Shown: positions 6,080 to 6,232 of the stretch, piece by piece
Numbering within the stretch: the stretch's first letter is position 1
Layout: each line of letters starts with the position of its first letter
Source: a virus
Lineage: Duplodnaviria; Heunggongvirae; Uroviricota; Caudoviricetes
Strand: one strand, 5' to 3'
DNA: 8,520 nucleotides
IMG/VR virus record: IMGVR_UViG_2534681654_000003
Span: 1 to 8,520 of that record
Made by a program: the position numbers and the translations under genes
The notes under the pieces: generated by a model
The model's database searches: none
What the model saw: only the letters and a program-made list of their open reading frames with translations
Told to the model about the DNA's origin: nothing

Positions 6080-6218
6080 GAACTTTGGGGTGTGGTGAAG
6101 GGTTCATGGACGGGAATATGTCGCACGTAAAGCGGCGAGGCCTGCGGGACTATTGCCGAATTGAAGTAGGCCGAAACAGGTCGAAATGGGTCTCCCACCT
6201 ACCACACCACCAAAGTTC
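6080..6218 (+). promoter_or_regulatory. Long-range stem in the N leader ending next to the N ribosome-binding site
   Basis: 5' arm gaactttggggtgtggtg (6080-6097) pairs with 3' arm accacaccaccaaagttc (6201-6218): 17 bp with one bulge, enclosing about 100 nt. The 3' arm ends 3 nt before the SD AGGAGG (6222-6227). Confidence 0.5.
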
Positions 6219-6232
6219 ATCAGGAGGTCTAT

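Follow-up and report, generated by a model that had tools for sequence, protein, structure and literature searches.

A covarying long-range RNA stem in the N leader of phage 933W, homologous to the lambda N-leader stem and a candidate RNase III site

Organization of the N leader

The window, by which we mean the whole stretch of 8,520 nucleotides that was analysed, is the immunity and early-left region of phage 933W. Its segment 5880-6640 was found by megablast to be 100% identical over the full length to 933W (AF125520) and to many other Stx phages. On the plus strand cI is followed by stk, further genes and a terminator, and then by a promoter. A promoter scan returned a sole promoter-like site within 5700-6700, a sigma-70 type candidate for pL, which overlaps operator-like inverted repeats detected at 5944-5976 in a repeat search. 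The transcript start was predicted at about 5991 from alignment with the lambda pL +1 (AUCAGCAGGACGC), and the sequence at the start, UCAGCAGGACGC, is conserved in 933W, lambda, 21, P22 and BP-4795. The features of the region are the following.

3586-4293, plus strand: cI
5955-5983, plus strand: predicted pL promoter (-35 TTGATA 5955-5960, 17-nt spacer, -10 CATTAT 5978-5983)
6001-6067, plus strand: nutL, mapped onto the window from the annotation of the 933W and phi24B records
6053-6067, plus strand: boxB-like hairpin GCGCUGACAAAGCGC at the 3' end of nutL, predicted by folding
6073-6088, plus strand: local hairpin CCAAAG-UGAA-CUUUGG (-6.4 kcal/mol), competing with the long-range stem for 6083-6088
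6078-6097, plus strand: 5' arm of the long-range stem, GU-rich, with boxC-like GGGGUGUGGUG; repeat search, folding, shuffles and covariation
6098-6199, plus strand: enclosed insert, a predicted multi-hairpin junction (consensus fold of a 19-sequence alignment)
6200-6220, plus strand: 3' arm of the long-range stem, in which only A6209 is bulged; repeat search, folding and covariation
6222-6235, plus strand: N translation initiation region (Shine-Dalgarno sequence AGGAGG 6222-6227, ATG 6233-6235)
6233-6616, plus strand: N antitermination protein gene, 127 aa, H-19B/933W type

Given the order pL, nutL, stem, Shine-Dalgarno sequence and N, the stem (6078-6220) sits in the pL leader, downstream of nutL and upstream of the N ribosome-binding site. 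A first-pass annotation of this DNA had placed it in the N leader beside that site, which was right.

A stable stem between distant arms

The two arms at 6080-6097 (GAACUUUGGGGUGUGGUG) and 6201-6218 (ACCACACCACCAAAGUUC) are paired throughout once A6209 is bulged out, giving 9 bp (6080-6088 with 6210-6218) and 8 bp (6089-6096 with 6201-6208), and the near-perfect complementarity claimed for them in the first-pass annotation was thereby borne out. The helix can be extended by U6079-A6219 and G6078-U6220 at its base and by G6097-U6200 at its top, to a total of 19-21 bp. An ungapped repeat finder reported the same stem as two pairs of segments, one of 10 nt that is perfect and one of 13 nt with 85% complementarity. 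The loop between the arms (6098-6199) is 102 nt long, in agreement with the separation of about 100 nt given earlier, and the stem ends 1-3 nt upstream of the N Shine-Dalgarno sequence; counted from 6218 to AGGAGG at 6222-6227, the distance is the 3 nt that had been noted.

Folding of the leader had been proposed as a check, and it predicted a stable long-range structure. The stem was present in both the minimum free energy (MFE) and the centroid fold of the whole leader (z = -4.3; 0 of 200 shuffles folded as well) and again in both folds of a sub-region (z = -3.9; equalled by no shuffle). Pair probabilities were 0.95-1.0 for 19 stem pairs and the isolated duplex was calculated at -31.1 kcal/mol. 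None of 1000 dinucleotide shuffles of the leader contained a helix of at least 19 bp with at most one bulge (mean 9, maximum 16). In these folding models the helix is thermodynamically dominant, and the occlusion of the Shine-Dalgarno sequence predicted for 933W is partial only.

A local hairpin at 6073-6088, also pointed out in the first-pass annotation, does exist. It and the long-range stem are mutually exclusive, and its pair probability was about 0.99 in an RNA comprising 5991-6190 and 0.0 in the full leader. These modelled probabilities make it plausible that the hairpin is a co-transcriptional placeholder that is displaced once the 3' arm has been made. Counterpart hairpins of other sequence occur in lambda (CAAAGC-AGAAG-GCUUUG) and P22 (CCAAAC...GUUUGG).

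Two other structural readings of the leader were considered. A scan for intrinsic terminators found no terminator-like site at 6078-6232, and a terminator function was rejected because the 3' arm is followed by UCAGGAGG, without a U tract. Separately, the 5' end of the transcript (5991-6001, GUCAGCAGGAC) is predicted to pair with 6227-6237 (GUCUAUAUGAC) across the N start codon. Strong pairing of this kind is predicted for 933W, SPN9CC and BP-4795 and none for lambda, 21, P22 and S107, and given this absence the pairing was left out of the mechanism proposed below.

Covariation and conservation among lambdoid phages

The comparison set consisted of BLAST-matched loci and 80 further viral contigs found by a pattern of the 3' arm and the Shine-Dalgarno sequence. 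Covariation was assessed in an anchored alignment of 37 distinct arm pairs at 19 pair positions and compared with 500 shuffles. Standard pairs were found in 97.0% of the cells versus 81.8 +/- 0.8% in the shuffles, and the covariation score was 0.443 versus 0.157; in both cases 0 of the 500 shuffles reached the observed value. When the 3' partner was slid by 1-3 columns, pairing fell to 35-48%. Two-sided compensatory changes were present at 12 of the 19 stem pairs.

In the layout common to the variants, one bulged purine separates a basal helix, GARCUUUGG / CCAAAGUUC, from a second helix of 7-9 bp above it. This upper helix occurs in several sequence versions, all of them complementary: GGUGUGGU/ACCACACC, GAUGCGAUG/CAUCGCAUC, GGUGAAU/AUUCACC, GAUUGGAUG/CAUCCAAUC, GAAGGCGU/GCGCUUUC and GAUGUGGC/GCCCACAUC. 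In phi80 and PA2 the basal helix differs (AUGUUAUGG/CCAAAGCAU and GGGAAUGUUUUGG/CCAAAGCAUUUCC), yet it is still paired past the boundary of homology to 933W, and the bulged A is replaced by G in these two and in some other variants. The architecture is common to phages 21, P22 and phi80. In an alignment of six phages (933W, lambda, 683R2, 21, P22 and phi80) the blocks T..GG..TG of the 5' arm and CCAAAG of the 3' arm were invariant, and they were the only invariant blocks beyond the transcript start. The long-range stem was part of the MFE fold in all nine leaders tested (9/9). Judged from these alignments, the pairing is selected for, and compensatory substitutions maintain the helix across heteroimmune lambdoid phages.

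One exception was found. The leader of contig L064 has no long-range stem and only a local hairpin of about 12 bp, in which the 5' arm lies directly beside the 3' arm. The insert is replaced in this leader by a small ORF (MFEVICNPILGSMIFTFAICFGFTIWSEVSDWMWDRKNK, hydrophobic), which is equipped with a Shine-Dalgarno sequence of its own.

The distance of the stem from the next ribosome-binding site also varies. The 933W-type cassette lies 25-30 nt from the N Shine-Dalgarno sequence in phi80 and about 290 nt upstream of the next ORF in PA2-type Stx phages, and adjacency to the N ribosome-binding site is therefore not universal. The PA2-type stretch that was examined (L004) has no annotated N gene. 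The order of elements in it is a phi80-like boxA, the cassette, an IsrK-like RNA (RF01394, 58.7 bits) and a C4 antisense RNA (RF01695, 77.1 bits), the two RNAs at 889-964 and 989-1076.

Homology to the lambda N-leader stem

The lambda leader (NC_001416, reverse strand) reads GCCCUGAAGAAGGGC (boxB) ...CAAAGCAGAAGGCUUUGGGGUGUGUG... about 90 nt ...CACACACCACCAAAGCUAACUGACAGGAG...AUG, with the arms GGCUUUGGGGUGUGUG and CACACACC-A-CCAAAGC at +81 to +96 and +187 to +202 of the pL transcript. When the arms are compared, 933W has CUUUGGGGUGUGGUG / ACCACACC-A-CCAAAG and lambda has CUUUGGGGUGUGUG / CACACACC-A-CCAAAG. As in lambda, pL, nutL, the stem, the Shine-Dalgarno sequence and N follow each other in the same order in 933W; the arms are near-identical to those of lambda (UUUGGGGUGUG / CACACC-A-CCAAAG), the same A is bulged, a competing hairpin lies upstream of the 5' arm, and the enclosed loops are of similar size (102 nt in 933W and about 90 nt in lambda). 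There are also differences. The sequence of the 933W insert is unrelated to that of lambda, and 933W carries an H-19B-type N and nutL. Its helix exceeds the lambda one by 2-3 bp, and the Shine-Dalgarno sequence is 1-3 nt away from it compared with about 10 nt in lambda, where the helix is extended by GCAUUCA/UGGAUGC pairing across the start codon. Phage 683R2 combines the pL, nutL and N of lambda with an insert of the 933W type.

Given the near-identical arms, the same bulged A and the same place in the leader, the 933W stem is, by sequence comparison, a homologue of the lambda N-leader stem. The first-pass annotation had described it as analogous to the lambda element and sequence-distinct from it. 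The kinship was correctly seen, but the arm alignment shows that the arms are homologous and not merely analogous, and "sequence-distinct" was wrong in that arms, bulged A and position match lambda and the insert alone differs.

The lambda N-leader stem is a documented substrate for cleavage by RNase III, and processing of the lambda N leader was reportedly described by Steege et al. in 1987 (cited in PMC5371410). No RNase III feature is annotated in the lambda GenBank records (NC_001416, J02459). According to PMC5725501 (citing Wilson 1997, 2002), lambda N represses its own translation from NutL, some 200 nt upstream, where it is bound along with Nus factors, and the leader in between is highly structured. 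PMC9032294 (citing Kameyama 1991) gives RNase III as a positive regulator acting on lambda N mRNA. The rnc70 mutant, which binds without cleavage, still regulates lambda N mRNA (PMC8708148).

Proposed function of the stem

We consider it likely, by homology with lambda, that the 933W stem is a version of lambda's RNase III-sensitive N-leader stem and tunes N translation. Its most likely function would be that of a binding and cleavage site for RNase III that separates nutL from the N coding region, so that N translation is tuned. Being the counterpart of the lambda stem, it is an expected regulatory element and not one of a new kind. The main claim of the first-pass annotation, a candidate RNase III site like that of lambda, is thus supported, more strongly than had been assumed there, by the covariation and by the homology to the lambda stem.

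During transcription the 5' arm would at first be held in the local hairpin 6073-6088, and the long-range helix would form when the 3' arm emerges. The formation of the helix may be aided by an N/Nus complex on nutL that keeps the 5' arm, with its GU-rich, boxC-like sequence, close to the RNA exit channel. RNase III would then bind the helix and cut both strands. RNase III specificity is not reliably predictable from sequence; the lambda cuts, which we take to lie near +88/89 and +197/198, would by homology correspond to cuts near G6088^G6089 and C6211^A6212 in 933W, and mapped on the arms they give a 2-nt 3' overhang, which is typical of RNase III. Cleavage, or binding alone, would separate the N coding region from nutL and the N and Nus factors bound there, and would open the structure around the N ribosome-binding site. 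The repression in cis that N exerts on its own translation would be relieved, and N synthesis would then depend on the level of host RNase III. More speculatively, the released nutL fragment would end exactly at the hairpin CCAAAG-UGAA-CUUUGG, which could shield it from 3' exonucleases.

Both cleavage by RNase III and an effect of rnc on N expression are inferred for 933W from lambda; a literature search found no report of RNase III acting on the 933W or H-19B N leader. Among the regulators of an induced Stx prophage N is made first, and it is required for all early and late expression downstream, that of Shiga toxin included. If N of 933W is tied to host RNase III as that of lambda is, the stem would link the development of the toxin phage to the growth state of the host. 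The comparison also adds proof by covariation for a structure known mainly from lambda biochemistry.

The helix might instead act through its structure, or through binding of RNase III without cleavage, as an insulator, a standby site or a partial mask, with cutting being incidental. In such a role it would keep the variable upstream insert from interfering with the N ribosome-binding site. The 3' arm does abut the Shine-Dalgarno sequence, the lambda helix reaches across the start codon, regulation by the binding-only rnc70 enzyme would fit (PMC8708148), and L064 has kept a short hairpin beside its Shine-Dalgarno sequence where the long-range stem is missing. However, about 20 bp with a conserved bulge in nearly all variants exceeds what insulation of a ribosome-binding site would need, and the phi80 and PA2 copies are not located beside one. 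Given in addition that the lambda stem is a documented cleavage substrate, we regard a purely structural role as unlikely.

The enclosed insert and its exchange

The helices predicted within the 933W insert are 6102-6105/6114-6117, 6121-6128/6132-6138, 6139-6144/6177-6182 (with an inner helix 6150-6154/6165-6169) and 6187-6190/6194-6197. One internal compensatory change was seen, U6143-A6178 to C-G in 4 of the 19 aligned sequences. In phage phi419 (L010) a 10-nt deletion at 6168-6177 takes away part of an internal helix without touching either arm. Even with permissive E values of up to 1, an Rfam search gave no family at 6000-6232; its sole match in the window was the lambda cIII thermoregulator, full length, at the start of cIII (7660-7718; RF01804, 88.5 bits, E = 4e-21). 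A search with ARAGORN for tRNA and tmRNA was likewise negative, both for the window and for 20 related leaders. The possibility that the insert encodes a protein (plus-strand ORF 6085-6282 or minus-strand ORF 5992-6198) was rejected, as there was no clear synonymous excess in any frame over 26 distinct substitutions; the best coding frame had 11 synonymous to 15 non-synonymous changes, and the phi419 deletion also counts against coding.

A sensitive BLAST search with the leader revealed mosaicism centred on the stem. Phi80 and the PA2, ArgO145 and F765-type Stx phages contain the segment 6084-6215 with an identity of about 91%, next to another nutL and other downstream genes, and the segment 5992-6099 recurs in BP-4795 and P22-like Salmonella phages, whose inserts differ. 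The 933W insert is thus a mosaic cassette, with about 91% identity to phi80 and PA2-type phages and 97% to 683R2. In the comparison set (L005-L011, L013-L131) the constant arms enclose at least 13 different insert lengths of 58-216 nt, measured from CUUUGG to the bulge; the inserts are unrelated and appear as a freely exchanged cassette. The 216-nt version is that of L101.

One type of insert is tRNA-like. In L071 (1552-1678, minus strand), L125 and L111, all with a 933W-type N, the insert matches RF00005 with 39.6 bits (gathering score 29, E = 7.6e-5). It retains intact acceptor, D and T arms, with 70 nt in the place of the anticodon arm, and its acceptor helix is formed by the upper helix of the N-leader stem. 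The insert was not called by ARAGORN.

Discrete, exchangeable cassettes between constant arms could mean that the stem is mainly an excision signal, from which RNase III would release the insert as an RNA with a function of its own, for instance as small RNA, decoy or tRNA-like molecule, and any influence on N would be secondary. The 933W-type insert, which is structured and highly conserved, turns up in three different leader contexts, and the tRNA-like insert, with the stem as its acceptor helix, points in the same direction. Against this, the inserts share neither sequence nor structure, the phi419 insert has lost 10 nt, L064 has a small ORF instead of an insert, and the 933W insert has no RNA family match and no known target in trans, which together make release of the insert as the main function very unlikely.

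A broader idea combines excision with the control of N. The boxC-type stem might be a general docking frame into which recombination swaps unrelated structured RNAs of 58-216 nt, a tRNA-like one among them, and from which RNase III cuts them out of the pL transcript, with the N/Nus complex chaperoning the helix. Early in infection, and besides tuning N, every phage would then set free its own small structured RNA. We hold this to be unlikely; as a hypothesis, a conserved stem that frames exchangeable structured inserts would be the more novel aspect of the element. The variation of the inserts indicates in any case that the helix tolerates, or serves, the exchange of what it encloses.

It is also highly improbable that the arms are conserved as DNA only, as short homologous linkers for the recombination of modules, with their complementarity as a by-product. 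Mosaic breakpoints do lie at or near the arms, the BLAST homology to phi80 and PA2 spanning 6084-6086 to 6215 and that to the Salmonella phages ending at 6089-6099. Linkers would leave unexplained, however, why an upper helix of differing sequence is always complementary and why the basal helix of phi80 and PA2 is still paired past the boundary of homology, and given the observed covariation this reading is refuted as a sufficient explanation.

Hardly credible is a reading of the element as an RNase P substrate resembling a tRNA, in which the upper helix would stand for the acceptor stem, the bulged A for the discriminator and the CCA after it for the CCA end: the 3' arm does read ...C-A-CCA-AAG in almost all variants and the L071-type inserts with their D and T arms reach the Rfam gathering score for tRNA, but the 933W insert lacks tRNA and tmRNA features (with ARAGORN empty in 20 leaders), the ACCA of the tRNA-like variant lies 2 nt too far 3' for the acceptor register, and phi80, PA2 and some other variants have G instead of the bulged A, and on this register and these bulged G residues the "bulged A + CCA" was rejected as a tRNA 3' end.

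Comparison with rRNA leader-trailer helices and T7 processing signals

The GU-rich 5' arm is presumably the classical "boxC" of the lambda nut regions. In 933W GGGGUGUGGUG is located at 6087-6097, 20 nt past boxB, in the 5' strand of the helix, and the GU-rich boxC-like element of nutL is thereby shown as one strand of a helix. In rRNA operons boxC (UCUGUGUGGG) is found in the 5' strand of the RNase III leader-trailer helix, and the antitermination complex has been proposed to keep boxC near the exit channel until the trailer appears (PMC10250234, PMC8632103). The 933W leader resembles the E. coli rRNA leader-trailer arrangement in having a nut-like site, a GU-rich boxC-type 5' strand downstream of it and a distant downstream partner, a resemblance that is functional only. 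The "delivery" of boxC proposed for rRNA would apply equally to the 933W leader, and the rRNA helix is an RNase III substrate, to which the 933W stem is likened, with cleavage inferred from lambda homology. This suggests, by analogy, that the N leader follows the same logic as the rRNA operons on a smaller scale and that N-modified polymerase may promote formation of the helix.

The two systems differ in scale and in role. The rRNA helix has 25-40 bp and encloses 1.5 kb of functional rRNA, compared with about 100 nt enclosed by the 933W stem, and it serves ribosome assembly where the 933W stem would serve translational control of a regulator. The 933W helix flanks no mature rRNA, its 102-nt insert having neither an rRNA nor any Rfam match, and the stem is not a member of the rRNA leader-trailer family. 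With the R1.1-type signals of T7, which are recognised by E. coli RNase III, the 933W stem shares its occurrence as a helix of about two turns in a phage early transcript. Each T7 site is a local hairpin that contains an internal loop and is cleaved in one strand, whereas the 933W stem is long-range and almost fully paired, and both of its strands are predicted to be cut.

Annotation of N genes and a remnant reading frame

N is annotated from an upstream in-frame ATG inside the structured leader in BP-4795 (L005 840-1289, 149 aa) and in lambda (NC_001416 / J02459 35037-35438, 133 aa). From the sequence, the true start of both is likely the ATG beside the Shine-Dalgarno sequence, downstream of the 3' arm. 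At the other end of the 933W gene, another frame of window positions 6613-6666 runs across the N stop codon and reads VTCVGRQKMKLGSKPLI*. Phage 21 N has a nearly identical C-terminus (VTCVGRQKIKLGSKPLI), and the frame probably survives as a remnant at a mosaic junction.
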